64,000 bases of DNA from an uncultured Chloroflexia bacterium. Its GTDB lineage: Bacteria > Chloroflexota > Anaerolineae > Aggregatilineales > UBA3940. Under the pieces are notes generated by a model that had not been told where the DNA came from, did not search any database, and worked only from the letters and a program-made list of their open reading frames with translations. A program made the translations under genes and the position numbers. Of this stretch, positions 5,255 through 44,052 are shown piece by piece. The stretch's first letter is position 1. The number at the start of each line of letters is the position of its first letter. Location of the stretch: the NCBI GenBank assembly GCA_963787375.1, contig CAWBCR010000011.1:42847-106846 (forward strand), given 5' to 3'.

Positions 5255-6925
5255 TTAATCCTTCTTCATCATCGGGATCTTCAGATCGTTCTCTGTGGCA
5301 AACTCAATCGCCTCCTCGTAGCCCGCGTCGGCATGGCGAATGACGCCCATCCACGGGTCGGCGGTGAGGACGCGCGCCAGGCGGGCGGCGGCTTCCGGCG
5401 TGCCATCGGCGACGATGACCTGCCCGGCGTGTTGGCTGTAGCCGATGCCGACGCCGCCGCCGTGATGGAACGATACCCACGTCGCGCCGCCGACGGCGTT
5501 CAGCGCGAAGTTGAGCAGCGGCCAGTCAGAGATGGCGTCGGAGCCATCCTTCATGCCTTCTGTCTCGCGGTTAGGCGAGGCGACCGAGCCCGCGTCGAGG
5601 TGGTCGCGGCCAATGACAATCGGCGCGCTAACCTCGCCGCTGGCGACCATATCGTTGAAGGCCAGCCCGGCCTTGATGCGCTCGCCGTAGCCCAGCCAGC
5701 AGATGCGCGACGGCAGCCCCTGGAAGTGCACCTGGTCCTGCGCCATCTTGATCCAGCGCGTCAGGTGCTCCTGCTCTGGGAACAGCTCCATGATCTTGGC
5801 GTCTGTAGCGTAGATATCCTCCGGGTCGCCGGAGAGCGCCACCCAGCGGAACGGCCCCTTGCCCTCGCAGAACAGCGGGCGGATGTAGGCCGGCACAAAG
5901 CCCTGATAGGTGAAGGCATCCTTCACGCCGGCGTCGAAGGCGCGCTGGCGCAGGTTGTTGCCGTAGTCAAACACAACCGCGCCCCGGTTGTGCATCTCGA
6001 CCATCGCGGCGCAGTGGGCGGCCATGGTGCGCATCGACTCACGCTGGTAGGCCTGCGGGTCACGCGCGCGCAGGGCAACGGCCTCGTCAAGCGTCATGTG
6101 GTTGGGCACATACATCAGCGGGTCGTGCGCGTTGGTCTGGTCGGTAACCATGTCGGGCAGCACGTTGCGCTCCAGCAGTTCGGCGAACACGTCGGCGGCG
6201 TTGCCGATCAGGCCAATCGAGACGCCCTCGCCGCGCGCCTTGTATTCGTCGACCATCTTCAGCGCGGTGTCCAGGTCCTCGACCACCACGTCGACGTAGC
6301 CGGTGTCGAGGCGGCGCTGGGCGCGGTGCGGGTCGACCTCCACGATCAGCCCTACACCCTCGTTCATCTTGATCGCCAGCGGCTGCGCGCCGCCCATCTC
6401 GCCCAGGCCCGCCGTCAGCACGAACTTACCTTTGAGCGATTTGTCGGGCCCGTAGTGCTTGCGGGCGGCAGCGGCGAGCGTCTCATAGGTGCCCTGCAAA
6501 ATGCCCTGCGTGCCGATGTATATCCAGGAGCCGGCGGTCATCTGACCGTACATGATCAGCCCTTCGCGCTCCCATTTGTCGAAGTTCTCCTGTGTGGCCC
6601 AGGCCGGGACGATGTTGGAGTTGGCGATGATGACGCGCGGCGCGTCCCGGTGCGTGCGCAGCACGCCCACCGGCTTGCCCGACTGTACCAGCAGCGTCTC
6701 GTCATCTTCGAGGTTGCGTAGCGACTCGAGGATCGCGTCGAACGCTTCCCAGTTCCGGGCCGCCTTGCCGCGCCCGCCGTAGACGATCAGGTTGTCGGGG
6801 TCCCCGGCCACATCCGGGTCGAGGTTGTTCTGGATCATGCGGTAGGCAGCTTCCTGAAGCCAGCCCTTGCATGTCAGGTCGGTGCCGCGCGGCGCGTGGA
6901 TGACGCGCTTTCCCTTGTCGGTCAT
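5255..6925 (-). CDS. hutU: Urocanate hydratase
   Basis: [50 protein letters not shown]. Confidence 0.97.
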
Positions 6926-6938
6926 GGTTTATCCTCTC

Positions 6939-7769
6939 TCACTGATATGCCTGCCGCCCCGCTGCCGGGTACACTTGGCGTGCGCGGCAGCTCAGGCAGG
7001 TTGGCCTTTCGCACAGCATGAAGTTGGGGTCCTGATGGATGCGCTGCTCGGCATAGACCAGCAGCGGTTTGAGCGGGATGAGCTCGCACCGCGCGAGCCC
7101 GATCTGCGTCACGGTGGTGAGGTCGGTCAGGTCGTTCCAGATGGCGTTGAAGCCCTGCATACAGCCGGGGATATTGGGCAATTCTTCGATATCGTTGAGG
7201 GTCAGCGCCCAGCGGATGAACGCCTTTCGCCCGGCACGCTGTTCGGCCAGGTGCAGCGCGTAGTTCTCACGCTGATCGACACCGATCAGCAGCACTGCGC
7301 CGTCACGTGCCTCCAGCCACGCAATTGGCGAGAGCGGGTTCTGGCGGGTCTGACTGGCCAGTACCTCACGCGCGTGCGGCCCCTGTGCCACAAATGATAG
7401 GATTGGGTGAATGCTGCGCAGCGTGTGCGGGCTGGCGCGCAGCGCCTCGGCGACCGCGCCGCAGTCGGGATGCACCGGCAGGTCGGGCCGGAAGATCTCG
7501 GCGCGGGCGTTGGCCTCATCGCCTGAACCATAGACAATGGCGTTGCGCGGCGGCCCGTCCTGTGGGATGACCTGCGTCTGGTAGGTAAAGGCCGGCATGA
7601 CGACTGTCCCAGCGGCGGACAGGATCGCCCCGGCGACGGCTGGCGGTCCGCCCGCGACCTCTCCCAGCGCGGTCATGTTGACGTGCGCGATGAGGTCCAG
7701 GTGCTCACCAATTCCCAGATCGTGGATCAGCTTCTCGCGGATGATAATATCGGTCAGCTTGTCGGCCAT
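6939..7769 (-). CDS. AAC(3)/YokD-family N-acetyltransferase-like protein
   Basis: GTVVMPAFT, RSIHPILSF, LLIGV..NYALHLAE; C-terminal CxxxxCxxC. Confidence 0.75.
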   Translation of the reverse strand: MADKLTDIIIREKLIHDLGIGEHLDLIAHVNMTALGEVAGGPPAVAGAILSAAGTVVMPAFTYQTQVIPQDGPPRNAIVYGSGDEANARAEIFRPDLPVHPDCGAVAEALRASPHTLRSIHPILSFVAQGPHAREVLASQTRQNPLSPIAWLEARDGAVLLIGVDQRENYALHLAEQRAGRKAFIRWALTLNDIEELPNIPGCMQGFNAIWNDLTDLTTVTQIGLARCELIPLKPLLVYAEQRIHQDPNFMLCERPTCLSCRARQVYPAAGRQAYQ

Positions 7770-7780
7770 AGGCTGCGCTG

Positions 7781-8554
7781 CTACTTCCCTTTCCATTCGG
7801 CAGGCCGCTTGTTGACGAAGGCGTCCATGCCCTCTTTCTGGTCCTCGCTGCTGAACAGGAAGTAGAAGTTGCGCCGTTCGTAAGCCAGCCCTTCTTTGAG
7901 CGTCATTTCGTATGCCTTATTGACCAACTCTTTGGCAAGCCGGATCGCCAGCGGCGCGCGTGCGGCGATCTCGTTGGCCAGGTTCAGCGCCTCGTCGAGA
8001 TAGCTCTCGACCGGGTAGACGCGGTTCGCCAGCCCGAACTGGTAGGCTTCCGGGGCGGCCAGGCGGCGGTCGTTGAGGATTATCTCCATCGCCAGCGCCT
8101 TGCCCACCGCGCGGATCAGGCGCTGCGTGCCGCCTGCGCCGGGGATCACGCCCAGGTTGATCTCTGGCTGCCCGAACACCGCCAACTCGCTGGCGACGAT
8201 CATATCGCACATCATGGCCAGCTCGCAGCCGCCGCCTAGCGCGATACCCGACACTGCCGCAATGACCGGCTTCTTCATCCCGGCGATGCGTTCCCATTCG
8301 CCGATGCGATCGCTGGTCAGCATCATGACCGACGTTGCGCCGGACATCTCTTTGATGTCAGCCCCGGCAGCAAAGACGCGGTCGCTGCCGGTGATGACCA
8401 TTGCGCCGACAGCCGGGTCGGCGTCGAACGCCGCCAGCGCGTCGGCCAGTTCACGCATAAGCGCGCTGCTGAGGGCGTTCAGCGCACGGGGCCGGTTCAG
8501 CCGGATGAGGCCCACCCGGTCGTGGATTTCCGTCAGGATAAACTCGTAGGCCAT
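7781..8554 (-). CDS. Enoyl-CoA hydratase (PaaF/EchA8-like)
   Basis: LNRPRALNAL, FAAGADIKEM, ALGGGCELAMMCD, PGAGGTQRL. Confidence 0.92.
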   Translation of the reverse strand: MAYEFILTEIHDRVGLIRLNRPRALNALSSALMRELADALAAFDADPAVGAMVITGSDRVFAAGADIKEMSGATSVMMLTSDRIGEWERIAGMKKPVIAAVSGIALGGGCELAMMCDMIVASELAVFGQPEINLGVIPGAGGTQRLIRAVGKALAMEIILNDRRLAAPEAYQFGLANRVYPVESYLDEALNLANEIAARAPLAIRLAKELVNKAYEMTLKEGLAYERRNFYFLFSSEDQKEGMDAFVNKRPAEWKGK

Positions 8555-8694
8555 CTCCGTTCCTTTCTGGGAGTGCGAGCCGCTATGCCAATCATAACAC
8601 CCTGCGCCGCTTAACTCAACGGCACGCAGTCAAAGCGCGCTACAATTAGTGGGTCCCATTTGCCGAATAGTCTGTCTGCCTGCGAGAGTAAACG

Positions 8695-9192
8695 ATGGCT
8701 GTCTTCAATCAATACTCATTTGTCTTTCTATCGATCTTCGCCGGGCTGATTCTGGCCGTCGGGCTGTGGCGCTGGCGCAAGCCGCCCGTTGCACTGCGCG
8801 CCGGGCTGATGGTGTTGTACATCGTTGGGATGGTGGGGCTGCATTTCGTCTCCCGCTACGCCGACACCTTTGATGGCAGCCTCGCCTCGGCGGACGCTAT
8901 CCTGACCGACGGCAAGCCCACGCTGCTGATGCTGTATTCCAATTATTGAGCGGCCTGCAAAGCCGAGCTGCCTGCCGTGCGCGGGCTTCAGCCTAAACTC
9001 AACCGTGACGGGATCGACCTGCTGCTGGTCAGCATCCACGAGCCAACCGGCCAGGTGCTCACCGAGCGCTACAATTTCCAGCTTTCGCCGACCTTCATCA
9101 TCTTTGACGGGGCCGGGCATGAGCTATGGCGCGGCAGCCGCGCGCCGTCGCTCGAACAGGCGCGGCAAATCACCGGATCGACCGGCGGATAA
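8695..9192 (+). CDS. Membrane-anchored thioredoxin-fold selenoprotein (UxxC), 165 aa; Sec at TGA 8947-8949
   Basis: ORFs 8695..8949 and 8977..9192 are in the same frame. Readthrough gives LLMLYSNY-U-AAC-KAELPAV, with a later SPTFIIFD cis-Pro loop and two N-terminal TM helices. Confidence 0.8.
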
Positions 9193-12701: not shown

Positions 12702-12853
12702 GGGCGCTCCTGCCATTTCACTACGGTGCTCGCGCAAGAGTGTAGCACACGCGGCCCTCTCGCGGCGAGGCGTACCTTGATCCATTGGCGGGAGCTATGA
12801 TACTATCAGCCTGAGCAACGGAGGCATGCGCCTCAAGCCATCGGAGAATGCTC

Positions 12854-13801
12854 ATGGCCAACTCGCCCAACGCCATCATCCCCGGCTCACGCAGCGGTGA
12901 CCTGCTCGACCAGGCCGTCGACACCTACCTGGCGGGCCTCGCGCCCAACACCCGCCGCGCCTACGAGAGCCGCCTCAACGCCTTTCTCGACTGGCGCAAC
13001 GGGCAGCCACCGGGCGCGCTGGTGACACACCTCAAGCAGTACGTCGCCTATCTCCAGGACGAACAGGACCTCGCACCACGCTCGGTGCAGGCCCACGTCA
13101 ACACCATCAAAGGCATGCTGCGCACCGCCGCCGCGATCCAGCCCGAGCTGTCCGCCGGGCTGCCACAGCTTGAACTGGTCAAGCCGCCCCGCGTGCGCGG
13201 CGAGGTGCAGGGCAGGCGGCTCACCGCGGCCCAGGCCCGCACGCTGCTGCTCACGCCCGGCATGGAAAGCGTCAAGGGGCTGCGTGATTCGGCTATCCTG
13301 GGCCTGCTGCTGATCCTCGGCCTGCGCCGCTCCGAAGTCTGCAACCTGACATGGGGGCATATCACCGACCTCGACGGGCACAAGGTTATCGCCAACCTCA
13401 AGGGCAAGCATGGGCGCATCCGAACGCTCAAAATGCCCGTCTGGCTGTGGCGGGCAGTGATGGCCTGGGGCCAGGCTTCCGGCCTCGACATCGCCAACCC
13501 GGAGCAGCGGGTTTTCGTGCCCATCACCAAAGATGGCAAGGTTCTGCGCTACCGGCACGGCCTGACGCCCCACGCCATCTACAAGCTCGTCAACTATTAC
13601 ACCCGGCTGACTGGCTTGCCGCCGGTCAAGCCGCACGACCTGCGCCGCACGGCGGCGCTGCTGTCGCGGCGGGGTGGGGCGAGCATCGAGCAGGTGCAGC
13701 TGATGCTGGGCCACGCCAGCCCGCAGACGACCAGCAACTACATCGGTGAAACGCTCGACCTCGACGACAACGCAGTCGACTACAACCCGCTGCATCTTTA
13801 G
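12854..13801 (+). CDS. Tyrosine recombinase (XerC/D-like)
   Basis: GLRRSE, GKHGR, PHDLRRT, LGHAS and catalytic Y (TTSNY); N-terminal SAM-like domain. Confidence 0.9.
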   Translation: MANSPNAIIPGSRSGDLLDQAVDTYLAGLAPNTRRAYESRLNAFLDWRNGQPPGALVTHLKQYVAYLQDEQDLAPRSVQAHVNTIKGMLRTAAAIQPELSAGLPQLELVKPPRVRGEVQGRRLTAAQARTLLLTPGMESVKGLRDSAILGLLLILGLRRSEVCNLTWGHITDLDGHKVIANLKGKHGRIRTLKMPVWLWRAVMAWGQASGLDIANPEQRVFVPITKDGKVLRYRHGLTPHAIYKLVNYYTRLTGLPPVKPHDLRRTAALLSRRGGASIEQVQLMLGHASPQTTSNYIGETLDLDDNAVDYNPLHL

Positions 13802-22730: not shown

Positions 22731-23714
22731 ATGACCAACCTGACCAACTCTCTCACCCGCGCGCACCCGGCCCTTGCCAACTCCGCGCCGGGCATCACCT
22801 ACCGACCGGGCAGCGCCGTCGACACGCTGGTCGGCAACACGCCGCTGCTGGCGTTCCGCCGCGTGACAGCAGGCCTGTCGCCGCGTGTCAGGCTGCTGGC
22901 TAAAGCCGAATGGGCCAACCCTGGCGGCTCGGTGAAAGATCGCCCCGCGCTGAACATCATCCGGCAGGCCGAGCGGCGCGGCGACCTGCGGCCCGGCATG
23001 ACGCTGCTCGACAGCACGTCGGGCAACATGGGCATCGCCTACGCGATGTTGTGCCGGGCGCTGGGCTACGCCGTGAAGCTGGTCGTGCCGGCCAACGCCA
23101 GCCCGGAGCGGCTGGCAACGCTGCGTGCGTATGGCGTCGACCTGACGCTGAGCGACCCCGCCGAGGGCACTGACGGCGCGATCCGGCTGGTGCACGATCT
23201 TTACGCAGCCGAGCCGGGTCGCTATTTCTTCGCCGATCAGTACAATAACCCGGACAACTGGCAGGCACACTATTTCAGCACCGGCGTCGAGATCTGGGAA
23301 CAGACCGGCGGGCAGGTGACGCATTTCGTGGCCGGGATCGGCACCAGCGGGACGCTGATGGGGGTCGGGCGGCGTCTGAAGGCCTATGATCCGTCGGTTC
23401 GACTGCTGGCCGTACAGCCTGACGCGGCGTTCAACGGCCTGGAAGGGCTGAAATACATGCCAACGGCCATCGTGCCCGGCATCTACGACGCCTCGCTGCC
23501 CGACGAGATCGTGCCGGTGCAAACCGAGGACGCCTACGCCATGTGCCGCCGGCTGGCCCGCGAAGAAGGCGTGCTGGTAGGCGTCTCGGCGGGGGCGGCG
23601 ATGGTCGCCGCGCTGGCGCTGGCCAAATCGCTCGACGAGGGCGTGGTCGTCACGCTGCTGCCGGATGGCGCGTCGAAGTACCTGAGCGAACCATTCTGGA
23701 CCGAGGGAGACTGA
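22731..23714 (+). CDS. cysM: PLP-dependent cysteine synthase (CysM-type)
   Basis: VGNTPL, NPGGSVKDR, TSGNMG, GIGTSGT, EGLK; operon context with mec, cysO and moeZ. Confidence 0.88.
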   Translation: MTNLTNSLTRAHPALANSAPGITYRPGSAVDTLVGNTPLLAFRRVTAGLSPRVRLLAKAEWANPGGSVKDRPALNIIRQAERRGDLRPGMTLLDSTSGNMGIAYAMLCRALGYAVKLVVPANASPERLATLRAYGVDLTLSDPAEGTDGAIRLVHDLYAAEPGRYFFADQYNNPDNWQAHYFSTGVEIWEQTGGQVTHFVAGIGTSGTLMGVGRRLKAYDPSVRLLAVQPDAAFNGLEGLKYMPTAIVPGIYDASLPDEIVPVQTEDAYAMCRRLAREEGVLVGVSAGAAMVAALALAKSLDEGVVVTLLPDGASKYLSEPFWTEGD

Positions 23715-23720
23715 ACGCCG

Positions 23721-24167
23721 ATGAGCATTGTCCTGATCGCACCTGAGCACCTGCAAGCCATCGAGGCGCACGGCATGGCGACCTATCCCAATGAAGGGGC
23801 AGGCTTCATGCTGGGGCGTGTCGACGGCGACACGTGGCTCATCGCGGCGCTGCTGCCCATCGACAACCGGCGCGAGCTCGAAGCACAGCACAACCGCTTC
23901 GAGCTAAGCCCAAGGGACTTCATGCAGGCCGAGGCCGAGGCGGACCGGCGCGGGCTGGACCTGATCGGCGTGTTTCACTCGCATCCCGATCACCCAGCAG
24001 AGCCGAGCGCGTTTGACCGCGACCACGCACTGCCCAACTTCAGCTATCTGATCACGTCGGTGCAGAAAGGGCAGGCGCAGGTCACCCGCGCCTGGCGGCT
24101 CAATCCGGACCGTTCTGCATTCGACGAAGACACACTGGAAATGACCGAGCACACAGGAGAAGCGTAA
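23721..24167 (+). CDS. mec: JAB/M67 metallopeptidase (Mec-like CysO-Cys peptidase)
   Basis: YPNE, FHSHPDHPAEPSAFD (JAMM motif). Confidence 0.88.
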   Translation: MSIVLIAPEHLQAIEAHGMATYPNEGAGFMLGRVDGDTWLIAALLPIDNRRELEAQHNRFELSPRDFMQAEAEADRRGLDLIGVFHSHPDHPAEPSAFDRDHALPNFSYLITSVQKGQAQVTRAWRLNPDRSAFDEDTLEMTEHTGEA

Positions 24168-24170
24168 GCA

Positions 24171-24905
24171 ATGGCAAGTATCCGGATACCTACCCCGCTG
24201 CGGGCCTACACCGGCGGCAGCGACACGATAGACGTCAGGGGCGACACGGTCGGGCAGGCGCTCGACGACCTGGTACGGCAGCACCCCGACCTCAGGCAGC
24301 ACCTGTTCAAGGACAGCACATTGCGCAGCTTCGTCAACATCTACGTGGGCGAGGACGACATCCGCTACCTAGACGGCGTCGATACGGCCATCACGCCGGA
24401 AACGCGGCTGTTGCTGGTACCATCGGTGGCGGGCGGCTCGCAGGAGGGGCTGCGCCAGGTGGACCATTCGGCGCTGCGCACCAACCAGGCATTCATCATC
24501 GGCTTTCTGCTGGCGGCCTTCGTGGTGAACAGCGCGGCGCTGGTCGCGTTCGTCGCCGCCGTGATGCTGGTCGGGACACTTTGGCCCGCGCTGGGGCTGT
24601 TCAAGCGCATCTACCGCCACGTGCTGAGGCCGTTGGGGATCGTGCGGCCCGACGTGATCCGCGACAATCCGGAGCCGCACCGCTTCGCACAGGGGCTGGG
24701 CGGGACGTTCCTGGTGGCGGGGCTGGCGGCGCTGCTGGCCGGCGTGCCGGTAGCAGGCTGGGCACTGGTGTGGGTCGTGATCGGGCTGGCGGCGCTCAAC
24801 CTGTTCGCCGGGTTCTGCGCGGGATGCTTCGTCTACTACCAGCTTAACCGGCTGGGCGTACCCGGCTTTGGCGTGAGCCGTATTGAGCGAGGTGAGCGTC
24901 TGTGA
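24171..24905 (+). CDS. MoaD/CysO-like sulfur carrier fused to a DUF4395 membrane domain
   Basis: IRIPTPLRAYTGG..FVNIYVG.DDIRYL..VPSVAGG continues in frame into VDHSALRTNQ..PHRFAQG..FCAGC. Confidence 0.85.
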   Translation: MASIRIPTPLRAYTGGSDTIDVRGDTVGQALDDLVRQHPDLRQHLFKDSTLRSFVNIYVGEDDIRYLDGVDTAITPETRLLLVPSVAGGSQEGLRQVDHSALRTNQAFIIGFLLAAFVVNSAALVAFVAAVMLVGTLWPALGLFKRIYRHVLRPLGIVRPDVIRDNPEPHRFAQGLGGTFLVAGLAALLAGVPVAGWALVWVVIGLAALNLFAGFCAGCFVYYQLNRLGVPGFGVSRIERGERL

Positions 24906-25354
24906 TCGAACGCGCGCTGATCGCCGCGCTGCTGATTGGGCTGGGCTTCGGGGCGGTGGTGCTGGGCTCGCGCTGGCAGGCCCGCCGTACGGGCCGCACC
25001 CGGCGCGGCGATGCGATTCTCGACGCGCTGCGTCCTGGCGTTCCAGCGGTGGTCTATTTCTGGTCCGAGACGTGCGCGCCATGCAAGACGGTCCAGAAGC
25101 CAGCGCTGGAACAGCTCCAGGCCGAGATGGGCCCCGATGGCGTGCAGGTGTACGCCATCAACGCGGTCGAACGGCCCGACCTAGCCGACGGCTGGGGCGT
25201 GTTGAGCCTGCCGACGACGTTCATCGTCGACGCAGGCCGGACGCCGCGCCGGGTGAATCACGGCGTGGCGCGCGCCGAACAGCTCAAGCGGCAGATCGCC
25301 GCCGTAGCGAATTGCGGCGACGTGAGCGTGGGTGGCGGGGAGCCATCGGCATGA
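24902..25354 (+). CDS. Membrane-anchored thioredoxin-like protein
   Basis: N-terminal TM; YFWSETCAPC; LSLPTTFI. Confidence 0.85.
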   Translation: MIERALIAALLIGLGFGAVVLGSRWQARRTGRTRRGDAILDALRPGVPAVVYFWSETCAPCKTVQKPALEQLQAEMGPDGVQVYAINAVERPDLADGWGVLSLPTTFIVDAGRTPRRVNHGVARAEQLKRQIAAVANCGDVSVGGGEPSA

Positions 25355-25513
25355 CAGCCACAGAAATAGATTTGCCAGCAGCTACGACCGGCAATCAATT
25401 GCCGGCCTATAGCGCGGGCTCGCTGCGCTCACCTGCGGATAAGTCGGTTAGAAACCGACTCAAATGCGCGCACAATTCCCGTGCTTAGCGTGATACATAG
25501 AGGATAAATCAGC

Positions 25514-26710
25514 ATGACAGTCTCTCAACACATCGCCCCGGAGGCAATCAACCTCTCACATGACGAAATCAAGCGCTACAGCCGGCACCTGATCATGCCC
25601 GAAGTGGGCATGGCCGGGCAGCGCAAGCTAAAGGCGGCCAGCGTGCTGCTGATCGGCGCGGGCGGGCTGGGCTCGCCGCTGGCGATGTACCTGGCCGCGG
25701 CAGGCGTGGGGCGCATCGGGCTGGTCGACTACGACACGGTCGATGCGTCAAACCTCCAGCGGCAGGTGATCCACGGCACGAAGGACATCGGGCGGTCCAA
25801 GCTGGAAAGCGCCAAGGCACGCATCACGGACATCAACCCCTACGTGCAGGTCGACACCTACGCCGCACCGCTGACCTCCGACAACGCGCTGGAGGTGCTG
25901 GCACCGTACGACGTGATCGTCGACGGCACCGACAATTTCCCGACGCGCTACCTGGTCAACGACGCGTGCGTGATGCTGGGCAAGCCAAACGTGTATGGCA
26001 GCATCTTCCGCTTCGAGGGGCAGGCCAGCGTGTTCGACGCGACGCAGGGACCATGCTACCGCTGCCTGTTCCCCGCGCCGCCGCCGCCCGGCCTGGTGCC
26101 AAGCTGCGCCGAAGGCGGCGTGCTGGGCGTGCTGCCCGGCACAATCGGGGCCATCCAGGCGACAGAGACGATCAAGCTGATCCTGGGCACGGGCGAGACG
26201 CTGATGGGACGGCTACTGCTATACGACGCGCTGAAGATGAGCTTCGAGTTTGTGAAACTGCGCAAGAACCCGGACTGCCCGGTGTGCGGCGAGCACCCGA
26301 CGCTGACCGAGCTGATCGACTACGAGCAGTTCTGCGGGATGCCGGGCCACGACCACAGCGCCTTCCACAGCGACAACGAGGCGATAGTGCCGACCATCAG
26401 CGTTAAGGAAGTCAAGCGCAAGCTCAACTCCGGCGAAGACTTCGTGCTGCTCGACGTGCGCGAGCCGCACGAGTGGCAGATCTCAAACATCGACACACCG
26501 CTGACGGTGCACATCCCCAAGGGGCAGATCCTTGAGCAGCTCGGCAAGCTGGACACCGCCCATGAGATCGTGGTGTACTGCAAGACGGGCGGGCGCTCGG
26601 CAGACGTGGTCGCCACGCTGAAAGAGCACGGCTACACGCATCTCAAGAACATGGCGGGCGGGATCAACGCGTGGGCCACGCAGGTGGACCCGGAGCTGCC
26701 GACGTACTGA
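25514..26710 (+). CDS. moeZ: MoeB/MoeZ E1-like adenylyltransferase with C-terminal rhodanese
   Basis: RYSRH, GAGGLGSP, SNLQRQ, DGTDNFPTRYL, CYRC, LDVREPHE, YCKTGGRS. Confidence 0.92.
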   Translation: MTVSQHIAPEAINLSHDEIKRYSRHLIMPEVGMAGQRKLKAASVLLIGAGGLGSPLAMYLAAAGVGRIGLVDYDTVDASNLQRQVIHGTKDIGRSKLESAKARITDINPYVQVDTYAAPLTSDNALEVLAPYDVIVDGTDNFPTRYLVNDACVMLGKPNVYGSIFRFEGQASVFDATQGPCYRCLFPAPPPPGLVPSCAEGGVLGVLPGTIGAIQATETIKLILGTGETLMGRLLLYDALKMSFEFVKLRKNPDCPVCGEHPTLTELIDYEQFCGMPGHDHSAFHSDNEAIVPTISVKEVKRKLNSGEDFVLLDVREPHEWQISNIDTPLTVHIPKGQILEQLGKLDTAHEIVVYCKTGGRSADVVATLKEHGYTHLKNMAGGINAWATQVDPELPTY

Positions 26711-38711: not shown

Positions 38712-39357
38712 TCAGGCGGTGTGGCGCACCACGGCTACCACGCGGCCCTGCACCTGCACCGTCGACGGGTCGTCGACGTAGATCGGGCCCATGGTCGGGT
38801 TGGCCGGCTGGAGACGAATCCGCGTACCCTCTTTGTAAATGCGCTTGAGGGTCGTCTCCTCGCGGTCGGTCAGCCACACGGCCACCAAATCGCCGTTGCC
38901 AACGTCCTCGTGCGGGCGCATGATGACGATGTCGCCGTCATTGATCATGGCATCGACCATCGAGTTCGCCCTTGACCTCCAGCGCGAACAGGTCGTCGTG
39001 TGGGTCAACAATGTCGCGTGTCAGCTCGATGGCTTCGTCAGCGCCCAGGATGGCGAAGTCGCTGCCCGGCACCGGGGCCGGCTCGCTGGCGACGATCCGC
39101 CCGACGAGCGGGACGCGGATCAGGTTCGTGTCGAATTCCACGCCAACCAGGCGAAGCCCGCGCGAAACCTCGCGGTCGCGCATTAATAGCCCTTCGCGCT
39201 CAAGCTTGTTCAGGTTGTAGTTGACGACGGATGTCGAAGAGATTCCACACGCCTTACCGATTTCACGGATGGTCGGCGGGTAGCCATTATCATCAAGGAA
39301 CAACTCGATGAAATTGACGATGGCTTCCTGCCGCTTGGACAGCTTCACGTCCGACAT
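38712..39357 (-). CDS. lexA: SOS repressor LexA; apparent frameshift near 38965
   Basis: GYPPTIREIG..SSTSVV; VPLVGRIVA; SMVDAMINDGDIVI; TLKR; LQPAN. Confidence 0.93.
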
Positions 39358-41230: not shown

Positions 41231-44052
41231 TTATTTCAGGTCACCCCAGCTTTGACCGGCGCGGGCATCGACCTTGAGCGGCACATCCATGGGGTAGGCG
41301 TTCTCCATCACATCACGCACCAGCCCGATGACTTCGTCCGTCTCGGAGTCGGGCGCTTCTAGCAGCAGCTCGTCGTGCACCTGGAGGATCATGCGGCTGC
41401 GCAGCTCGCGCTCCGTGAGCGCGTCGTGCAGCCTGACCATCGCGATCTTGATGATGTCGGCGGCAGTGCCCTGGATCGGCATGTTGACCGCTTCACGCTC
41501 GGCGGCGCGCCGAGCGATCATCGCCTGCTGGCTGGTATCGCCCGATTGGAAGATGGAGAAGTAGCGGCGGCGGCCCAGCAGCGTCTCGACATAGCCCCGT
41601 TCGATGGCCTGCTGTTTGGTCGTTTCGAGATAGTCGCGCACCTTCGGGAAGCGCTCGAAGTATGTCTTGATGAAATCCTCCGCTTCGGGCAGCGTCAACT
41701 CTGAATCGCGCGCCAGCCGGAAGGCCCCCATGCCGTACAGCAGCCCGAAGTTCACCGCTTTGGCAAAGCTGCGCATGGCGGGCGTCACCTCAGCCAGCGG
41801 GATGTTGAATACGGTCGCGGCGGTGGTGGCGTGGATGTCCTGCCCCTCGCGGAAGGCCTGGCGCAGCGCCTCATCACCGGAGATGTGGGCCATGACGCGC
41901 AGCTCTACCTGCGAGTAGTCGGCGCCGACCAGTTTGTGGCCCGGCGCGGAGATGAAGGCATCGCGCACGCGGCGGCCAAAGTCCCTGCGGATGGGGATGT
42001 TTTGCAGATTGGGGTCGCTGGAGCTAATGCGCCCGGTGATGGCCCCGGTCTGGTTAAAGGAGGAATGGATCCGCCCGGTGCGCGGGTTAACCATCTGCGG
42101 CAGCGCGTCGACGTAGGTCGAGCGCAGCTTCTCCAACTCGCGGTAGTCGAGGATGGCCTGCACCACGCCCGACGTGTCCTGCTCCAGCAGTCGAGTCGAG
42201 CACGTCGGCGGCGGTCGAGTAGTAGCCGCTCTTGGTCTTGCGCAGCCCCTGCGTGGGCAACTGGAGCTTTTCGAACAGCACTTCACTAAGCTGCTGCGTC
42301 GAGTTGAGATTGAACTCATTGCCAACGGTGTTGGTGATGCTGCGAACGATCTCGTCCAGCGATCCGGCGATCTCCGCGGACATCTTCTCCAGCAGCTTCA
42401 CGTCGACCAGCACGCCAGCCATCTCCATGTCGGCCAGCACAGGCACCAGCGGCATCTCGACCTCGTAGAACAGCTTCTCAAGCTGCTGGTCGGCGAGGTC
42501 TTTGCGGATCGGCGCGACAAGCTGAAGCGTCATGTCGGCGTCGGCGGCAGCATAGGGCGCGGCCTTGTCGACGGGCACCAGGTCCATCGTGATCTGCTTT
42601 TTGCCAGTGCCCAGCAGGTCGGCAATCTCAGTCATCTGGACGCCCAGCCGGAAGAAGGCAACCGCCTTCAGGCCCAGCTTGCGCTGCGCCGAATCGGGAC
42701 GCACCAGCCACTCGCCGATCATCGTGTCGAAGCTCAACGGCTGCACATCAAGTCCATGGCGGGTGAGCATCACAGCGTCATATTTGATGTTGTGCCCGTA
42801 CTTGGGAATATCGGGGTTGGTCAGCGCAGGACGCAGCCGCTCGACGACGGTCTCAATCGGAAGCTGCGGCGACGCGTCGCCCCCTTGGTGCCCGACCGGG
42901 ATGTAATAGCCCTCGCCCGGCTCGACGGCCAGCGAGATACCGACGAGCTCCGCCTGCATCTGATCGGTGCTGGTGGTCTCGGTGTCAAAGGCGATGCCCT
43001 GTGCCTGCTCCAGCCGCCTCGCCAGCGCGTCGAGCGCCTGTGCGTCGCGCACGATGACCGTCGCGGTCACCGGCTCCGGCAGCGGTGCGCCGGTCAGCGC
43101 CGAGGTGGCCGGGGCCTCGCCAAACAGCGAAAGCTGCTGGCCGTCGGACGGCGGCGCATCCGGCTCGCCATCACCGGCGGAAAGCTCCCGGAGGAATGTG
43201 CGAAACTCAAGCTCGCGAAATATCTCCACCACTTCGTCGCGGTTGAAGTCATGGGTGCGGCACGCCTCCAGATCGAACGCAAGCGGCACGTCGGTGACGA
43301 TCTGCGCCAGCTTATAGCTCAAATAGGCCGCGTCGCGATTCGCTTCAAGCGCCATGCGCGTGCGTTTGCTGGTAATCTCTGCAAGGTGGGCATAGATGTT
43401 GTCGAGCGTGCCATATTTCTGGATCAGATCGGTGGCCGACTTCTCACCCACCCCGGCCACGCCAGGGATATTGTCGGACTTGTCGCCGACGAGCGCCTTG
43501 AAGTCGACGATGCGCAGCGGGTCGAAGCCGAAGCGGTCGCGCACGGCCTGGATGTCGTACAGTTCGACCTCGCCGCTGCGGCGACCCGGAAGCTGCACGA
43601 GCGTGTGCTCGCTGACCAACTGGAGCAAGTCTTTGTCGCCAGTAACGATCAGCGTCTCGACGCCCTGCTGCTCGGCCAGCCGCGAGATGGTGCCGCAGCA
43701 CGTCGTCCGCCTCGAAGCCGTCGACCTCCAGCACCGGGACGTTGAAGGCGCGCAGTACGTCATGCATCCTGCCGATCTGCACGTGCAGGCTGTCGGGCAT
43801 TTTCTCGCGGGTGCCCTTGTACGCCTCGAACAGGTCGTCGCGGAAGGTCGCGCCCACGTCGAAGCTGACTGCCAGGTAATCGGGCGGGTCCTCGCCCGTG
43901 ATCAGGTTGATCAGCGTGCGGGTGAAGCCGTAGGTTGCGTTGGTTGGCTCGCCGCTGCGGGTTGTCATGTCGACCTGGAGAGCAAAGAACATGCGATAGG
44001 CAAGCCCGTGCCCGTCGATGATGACCAGTCGCTTGCCGGCCGATTCTGGCAT
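41231..44052 (-). CDS. polA: DNA polymerase I; apparent frameshifts near 43695 and 42190
   Basis: IDGHGLAYR, GFEADDV, TGDKDLLQL, FDTETT, TGRISSSDPNLQNIP, ADYSQVELR, QVHDEL. Confidence 0.96.

Follow-up and report, generated by a model that had tools for sequence, protein, structure and literature searches.

A 64,000-nucleotide stretch of DNA from an uncultured Chloroflexia bacterium, hereafter the window, contains two forward-strand open reading frames (8695–8949 and 8977–9192) that share one frame and are parted only by a TGA codon at 8947–8949. The question raised by this locus is whether the TGA is a true stop codon or is decoded as selenocysteine (Sec) within a single gene. The initial annotation, made from the letters of the window, had favored the latter, since the TGA falls exactly at the first Cys position of a thioredoxin motif, with two transmembrane helices ahead of it and a cis-Pro loop behind it.

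The reading frame and its predicted product

According to the list of open reading frames and the translation, positions 8695–9192 form a single frame that is broken solely by the TGA, and translation of this codon as U yields a protein of 165 residues containing YSNY-U85-AA-C88 and S-P132-T-F, which confirms the position of the TGA at the motif and that of the cis-Pro loop (Table 1). The AlphaFold model, built with 66 homologues, has a mean pLDDT of 92.9 and a pTM of 0.83, and comprises two helices, as had been proposed, followed by a short thioredoxin fold. In structure and in sequence it most closely matches thioredoxins and the C-terminal domain of DsbD, with soluble thioredoxins as the best structural matches.

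Table 1. Features of the candidate selenoprotein gene, in positions of the window
Feature	Position	Strand	Basis and remarks
Possible ribosome-binding site, GAGAG	8684..8688	+	Sequence, 6 nt 5′ of ATG; function presumed
Whole gene, 165 codons and TAA, one internal TGA	8695..9192	+	Open reading frames, translation
Predicted transmembrane helix 1, residues 8–26	8716..8772	+	Model helix, hydropathy; preceded by the family start motif N-Q/R-Y-S (alignment)
Basic inter-helix loop, residues 26–35, four K/R	8770..8799	+	Predicted to be cytoplasmic from the positive-inside rule
Predicted transmembrane helix 2, residues 32–52	8788..8850	+	Model helix, hydropathy
Thioredoxin-fold domain, residues 63–161, classic short fold	8881..9177	+	Profile, model, structure matches
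TGA, predicted selenocysteine 85, position 1 of U-A-A-C	8947..8949	+	Translation, comparison of homologues
Cys88 codon TGC, predicted resolving cysteine	8956..8958	+	Near-invariant among 66 homologues
Predicted bacterial SECIS, 6-bp stem 8970–75/8981–86, loop CGUGC 8976–80	8970..8986	+	Folding, covariation
Pro132 at the thioredoxin cis-Pro position, here S-P-T-F (S-P, 9085–9090)	9088..9090	+	Alignment; cis conformation suggested by the fold

The gene is free-standing, with a divergent enoyl-CoA hydratase gene on one side and an abutting, convergent MFS gene on the other. A promoter and terminator scan returned none for the selenoprotein gene, its single promoter-like site being on the minus strand. 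Synteny of the locus is shared with the nearest relative only, and no conserved neighbor for the window's clade was found among those listed for the 57 loci with 1.5 kb flanks, nor in 12 wider loci. Elsewhere in the window, an aminoglycoside 3-N-acetyltransferase family gene (6939–7796; PF02522, function predicted) sits between urocanate hydratase-like and enoyl-CoA hydratase genes, and a lone tyrosine recombinase gene (12848–13801) lies beside a TRAM-domain RNA methyltransferase gene and DUF951.

A true stop at 8947–8949, arising from a sequencing error or a nonsense mutation or separating two small genes, would agree with the two open reading frames made by gene callers and with the frameshift-like breaks found elsewhere in the window's assembly. 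These breaks had been described as indels and not nonsense substitutions, which fits both of the two genes checked: glyS (alpha-beta fusion; 1944–4862/4552–5055) and the AIM24 gene (11033–11368/10716–11090) are each split across overlapping frames, in the way that indels in an assembly would produce. Regions 33172–33612/32451–33233, 38712–39357 and 41231–43628 look split too. The downstream open reading frame of the present locus, however, starts at a GTG that lies past Cys88, within the loop of the hairpin described below, so that neither half would carry the redox pair. A true stop is further opposed by the homologues, in which the same codon is TGA in 34 loci and 12 held-out loci and Cys stands opposite it in others, and by a covarying hairpin that accompanies only the TGA; we consider it very improbable. 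Contigs of relatives, at a depth of about 4, show no other letter at 8947–8949, and since only 24–30 letters lie on their left side, they are not counted as bridging the codon. No RNA run containing the genome was found in a listing of sequencing runs, and the DNA run shares were below 0.2.

Selenocysteine decoding and the SECIS hairpin

The selA, selB, selC (tRNA-Sec) and selD genes, whose presence had been raised as a check, were all found over curated cut-offs in the genome to which the window belongs (83% complete), and its selD carries its own TGA. The commonest stop codon in this genome is TGA, which ends 860 of 1854 long coding-like open reading frames, indicating that the genetic code is standard, and the sole tRNA found with a TCA anticodon is tRNA-Sec. 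Both observations argue against a changed code in which every TGA would be read as Trp or Gly and the site would become W-x-x-C or G-x-x-C. Such a code might account for eight of 150 database matches that have W at the site, all seen as proteins and not as DNA, but these W forms are more simply explained as gene calls made under code 4, and a changed code is judged extremely improbable.

Homologues with TGA and homologues with Cys were both found, in the same alignment column. A close orthologue (E ≤ 1e-20) is present in 13 of 61 related genomes, with TGA in seven (own genome included) and Cys in six; selB was identified in all six of the other TGA-orthologue genomes vs. two of the six Cys-orthologue genomes. 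A class-wide profile search gave matches in 37 of 301 genomes, with TGA in 28 of 38 matches, and a phylum-wide search gave matches in 50 of 401 genomes, with TGA in 44 of 57 matches (position checked only in the fetched loci). On the tree, which like the others reported here is a quick tree, the Sec and Cys forms interleave in several clades. The Atlas clusters nearest to a Cys homologue are mostly from Chloroflexota, the class probably being Anaerolineae, and a scan of named genomes with the single protein as query returned two weak, unrelated loci. Among the 150 database matches, 30 terminate immediately ahead of the Sec site and 13 are lone C-terminal halves, and the family proteins bear the name "hypothetical" or generic names; a recurring annotation error, whereby databases cut the family at the UGA, is corrected here.

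The initial annotation had placed the SECIS in a stem starting 10 nucleotides after the UGA (AAGCC 8960–8964 with GGCTT 8984–8988). A hairpin near the UGA is supported, and these two segments are complementary, but the conserved stem is the overlapping one at 8970–8986, and the AAGCC/GGCTT pairing is not conserved: it was rejected as the SECIS because 57% of its cells are paired across the TGA forms and 47 of 500 shuffles were as high. The criteria given for a bacterial SECIS in the relevant part of PMC13188914 are a loop of 3–9 nt, a stem of 4–16 bp, a G within the first two loop positions, a distance of 16–37 nt from the UGA and a folding energy of at most −7.5 kcal/mol. The 8970–8986 element falls within all of these limits, as its 5-nt loop begins 26 nt past the UGA and has G at position 2, its stem has 6 bp and its energy is −9.0 kcal/mol.

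At least five of the six stem pairs are formed in 33 of 34 TGA loci vs. 2 of 23 Cys loci and, among held-out loci fetched after the register had been fixed, in 11 of 12 Sec loci and none of nine Cys loci; since the genomes are kin, these counts lack independence. The alignment leaves out L045 and L052, which are thioredoxins of other types, as well as three duplicated loci, and the held-out set excludes a U-x-x-S tandem copy. Across the TGA loci 92.4% of cells are paired, with 51 two-sided changes that affect all six pairs, whereas none of 500 shuffles reached this level and slid controls gave 21–46%; in the Cys forms 52.2% of cells are paired, and some of this pairing is still above that of the shuffles. 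For the Val of the loop, 32 of 34 Sec loci use the codon GTG, vs. 8 of 23 Cys loci. Under a strict filter the hairpin is absent from L026, a close TGA orthologue. When the region was folded alone, its stability was no greater than that of shuffles (z 0.23, 0.92 and 0.82), so the evidence for the SECIS is comparative. Two differences seen in contigs of relatives (depth of about 4) bear on the two stems: with T8973C the conserved stem stays intact, and C8964A disrupts the AAGCC/GGCTT stem. An identical CGUGC loop is found in a hairpin after the TGA of the genome's formate dehydrogenase gene.

The machinery, the Sec/Cys pairs and the covariation together support the annotation of this gene as encoding a U-x-x-C selenoprotein with a membrane anchor, and we conclude that the gene very likely encodes a selenoprotein of a kind listed before, that the support for this is good and that databases still mis-annotate it.

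A genome-wide filter for TGA read-through retained 60 candidates out of 112,037 TGA triplets, and its one other site within the window is an ordinary gene boundary. Other candidates in the genome (G000) are C28:55008, which we take to be formate dehydrogenase alpha-like; C8:53876, presumably an AhpD-like C-x-x-U protein; C16:14895, assumed to be a TlpA-like lipoprotein with U-I-N-C; C31:168558, presumably a GrdB/PrdB-like U-P-I-C protein; and C4:20731–21666, named SelD by the library, the hairpin of which differs in loop and position. Variants of the family were also observed in other genomes. A shorter, one-helix branch of about 140 residues (L037, L039–L041, L043, L044, L048, L081, L085 and L086) has Sec in 8 of 10 loci, with the hairpin in the same register. 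Locus L131 (G527:C1:654346–655583) contains tandem family genes, both with TGA (U-A-G-C and U-G-G-S); six genomes of its genus have two adjacent family matches each, of which only L131 was read. At L092 (G028), an Rdx-family (SelT/SelW/SelH-like) gene at 6291–6491 is located just upstream of a Cys orthologue. In this orthologue one half of the hairpin persists, which would fit a recent loss of Sec, and the genome retains selB.

Relation to the "Trx-like 3" family and other thioredoxin-like proteins

A UxxC selenoprotein family termed "Trx-like 3" was listed in the Global Ocean Sampling data with 212 sequences and with cd02950 at e>0.001 (Zhang and Gladyshev, 2008; PMC2398784), and the entries under this name in supplement 3 of that paper display the family start motif together with two helices, YSDY-U-LG-C and T-P-T-Y, the string YSDYU occurring 193 times in the file. 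In common with this family, the window family has an N-[RQ]-Y-S start, two hydrophobic helices, Y-S-[DN]-Y-U-x-x-C and T/S-P-T-[YF]. The earlier suggestion of a poorly described family therefore holds insofar as the family is without a curated model and is mis-called in databases, but not insofar as it was listed as "Trx-like 3" in 2008. No paper on Chloroflexota members was found in literature searches, and BSepDB may already contain these genes.

For comparison with the ocean family, a short motif scan yielded 118 metagenome loci, 86 of which score on the family profile and 32 of which are chance matches. Metagenome locus L244 matches by eye a read placed under "Trx-like 3" in supplement 3 of PMC2398784. 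An ocean-type hairpin with all six pairs lies in the register of the window family in 84 of the 86 loci; these had been picked by the TGA motif and are near kin. The 74 full-length ocean-type proteins score 67–85 bits on the family profile, which contains some members of the paralogous clade, vs. 38–52 bits for the genome's three canonical thioredoxins. The window protein alone is distant from the ocean sequences (about 10–37 bits), and in its own genome the ocean profile gives 61 bits for a Cys paralogue, 33 for the window gene and 14 for a canonical thioredoxin. In a quick tree of thioredoxin domains, in which the ocean branch is long and of odd composition, 36 family rows, including five ocean-type rows that are nested among them, are separated from seven outgroups (SH-aLRT 92, not starred). 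The two groups differ in that the ocean sequences come from low-GC marine contigs and the window from a Chloroflexota-type genome of 65% GC, and in that their charge biases around the helices are opposite. By sequence comparison, the window gene is thus likely to be a member of the "Trx-like 3" family in a broad sense, in a different subfamily. The ocean-metagenome family of 2008 is thereby tied to a family that is widespread in Chloroflexota and whose SECIS (loop C-G-U-G-x) is well supported, which suffices for a curated model.

Relations to other known proteins are looser. The fold, the U-x-x-C motif and a bacterial SECIS are shared with Sec thioredoxin (PF00085, UxxC) and with other UxxC rows in Table 1 of PMC13188914, among the row names of which "Trx-like 3" does not appear. 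Unlike Sec thioredoxin, the window protein has a membrane anchor and no W-C-G-P-C-type motif, and it falls below the cut-offs for canonical thioredoxins (TIGR01068, 15.5 vs. 96.8 bits; PF00085, 23.4 vs. 23.5 bits). TlpA, ResA and CcmG resemble it as membrane-anchored C-x-x-C reductases predicted to face outward, but the matches are weak (about 17–22 bits vs. NCBIfam cut-offs of 123–359), and the model differs from them in its short thioredoxin fold, with top matches to thioredoxins and the DsbD C-terminal domain. When the 66 homologues were compared with NCBIfam models of thioredoxin-like selenoproteins (SaoT, TsoA/B/X, HUIPC, WAxxUGC, GOS_C and others), no cut-off was reached; among the 25 of 28 families listed, the best E values were 5e-14 for a generic thioredoxin, 2e-7 for TsoB and 0.004 for WAxxUGC.

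Membrane orientation and possible redox role

The orientation score is the K/R count of the loop, from which the K/R preceding helix 1 and those immediately following helix 2 are subtracted. This crude count leaves out the 10 one-helix loci and retains the mis-parsed L035 and L080 and the mis-trimmed L034. In the window's clade the mean score is +2.2 and 12 of 13 close orthologues are positive, where the loop holds two to four K/R, helix 1 is preceded by none and helix 2 is followed by zero to two, a pattern from which the loop is predicted to lie inside and the domain outside. A Cys clade linked to murJ has a mean of −2.1, with 9 of 10 rows negative, and the ocean-type rows have a mean of −6.1, with all 12 scored (of 60 unique) negative; the domain tree joins these two groups (support 89, long branch). 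Further family clades score +1.2 (10 of 17 rows positive, seven weakly negative) and +0.7 (six of seven positive), and one-helix relatives have a mean of 1.73 K/R before the helix vs. 0.82 after it (11 rows). The Cys paralogue in the same genome (G000:C22:22044–22535, L051) carries C-M-G-C and is located after murJ and before genes for a SAM methyltransferase (TPMT/TehB-like matches) and a metalloenzyme; it belongs to that clade and shares its opposite charge bias. Of the 61 related genomes, 14 contain this clade, and these 14 are of a single family.

The fresh point of this analysis is the orientation difference predicted from this charge bias, by which the window's clade would place its Sec domain outside, whereas a cytoplasmic orientation would be expected for the Cys paralogue in the genome and for the ocean family. 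The orientation may have flipped in evolution: the Chloroflexota forms, mostly selenoproteins, would be outward-facing; a duplicate beside murJ, in the family to which this genome belongs, would have lost Sec, shifted its positive charges and turned inward; and ocean "Trx-like 3" would stem from this inverted branch, leaving the genome with Sec outside and Cys inside. Because the charge count is crude, this account is advanced as a hypothesis, and a somewhat doubtful one. If it is true, the same enzyme occurs on both membrane faces, a natural pair for asking why one compartment keeps Sec, and with the two paralogues, topology inversion and the use of selenocysteine at the surface could be tested in a simple way. 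An obligate heterodimer of the window protein with its inverted paralogue was considered and rejected on distribution, as both occur in only two genomes, compared with 13 for the close clade and 14 for the inverted clade, of 61.

The explanation that we favor with good confidence is that the UGA is very likely decoded as Sec in one gene, and that the product, predicted to be a "Trx-like 3"-type thioredoxin with a two-helix membrane anchor, is likely a thiol-disulfide reductase at the outer face. SelB would almost certainly bind the 8970–8986 hairpin and insert Sec85. The chemistry of a UxxC thioredoxin is familiar, and judging from the fold and from thioredoxins in general, Sec85 would very probably attack a substrate disulfide, with Cys88 resolving the intermediate to leave a selenenyl-sulfide. 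The charge bias suggests that the domain probably lies outside the cytoplasm, and an outward domain would need a membrane partner. The working analogy is plastid HCF164/CCS5 with CcdA, a membrane-anchored thioredoxin that faces away from the cytoplasm (PMC3842002): CcdA might re-reduce the window protein with cytoplasmic electrons, so that surface proteins stay reduced or disulfides are reshuffled, a step for which the prospects are nearly balanced. Cyanobacterial clusters are present among the lower Atlas matches, and one such protein matches the profile at E 1e-16 over the domain. Proteins of the HCF164/TxlA type (we take cd02950 to be cyanobacterial TxlA) differ, however, in that they fall outside the family on the tree and use Cys, and the window gene shows no link to cytochrome c assembly. 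The genome contains CcdA, cytochrome c assembly genes and several TlpA/CcmG-like genes, as well as two DsbA-like genes and two VKOR genes, one a thioredoxin(C-P-H-C)-VKOR fusion (G000:C2:108726–110027) and the other stand-alone (C17:112627–113088). A CcdA-fed role is thus weakened by the presence of other TlpA/CcmG-like candidates for CcdA and of the VKOR and DsbA-like genes, and the neighborhood of the selenoprotein gene names no partner.

The argument for an outward domain is itself weakened by the simplicity of the charge count and by the flips in other family clades. The same selenoprotein could instead hold its domain in the cytoplasm, be recycled by thioredoxin reductase and act on membrane proteins from inside. 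The opposite bias of the murJ-linked and ocean rows, the weakly negative rows in other class clades and the structural resemblance to soluble thioredoxins would agree with this, but the window's own clade is positive almost throughout, its K/R being concentrated in the loop, and a cytoplasmic domain is accordingly rated as unlikely.

With the domain outside, the protein might also act in disulfide formation, as an oxidase or isomerase from which electrons pass to the stand-alone VKOR, which has no fused thioredoxin; DsbB was not found in the 83%-complete genome. The residue before the cis-Pro is Thr in 39 of 57 loci, and Thr or Ser in 43, and Thr at this position, a typical feature of DsbC/DsbG, makes the redox potential higher. 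The VKOR proteins could, however, already be served by the two DsbA-like genes and the thioredoxin-VKOR fusion, the fold is without the helical insertion of DsbA, and selenenyl-sulfides are in general more reducing than their disulfide counterparts. An oxidase or isomerase is therefore regarded as rather improbable, and an outward-facing reductase is preferred.

A further set of thioredoxin-related genes was observed in the window at 22731–26710, where a PLP enzyme (cysteine synthase-like), a JAB-domain protein, a ThiS-DUF4395 fusion and a ThiF-rhodanese gene are clustered with a one-helix thioredoxin-like protein carrying C-A-P-C (24902–25354). The cluster resembles a sulfur-carrier system for cysteine synthesis, extended by two membrane redox parts.
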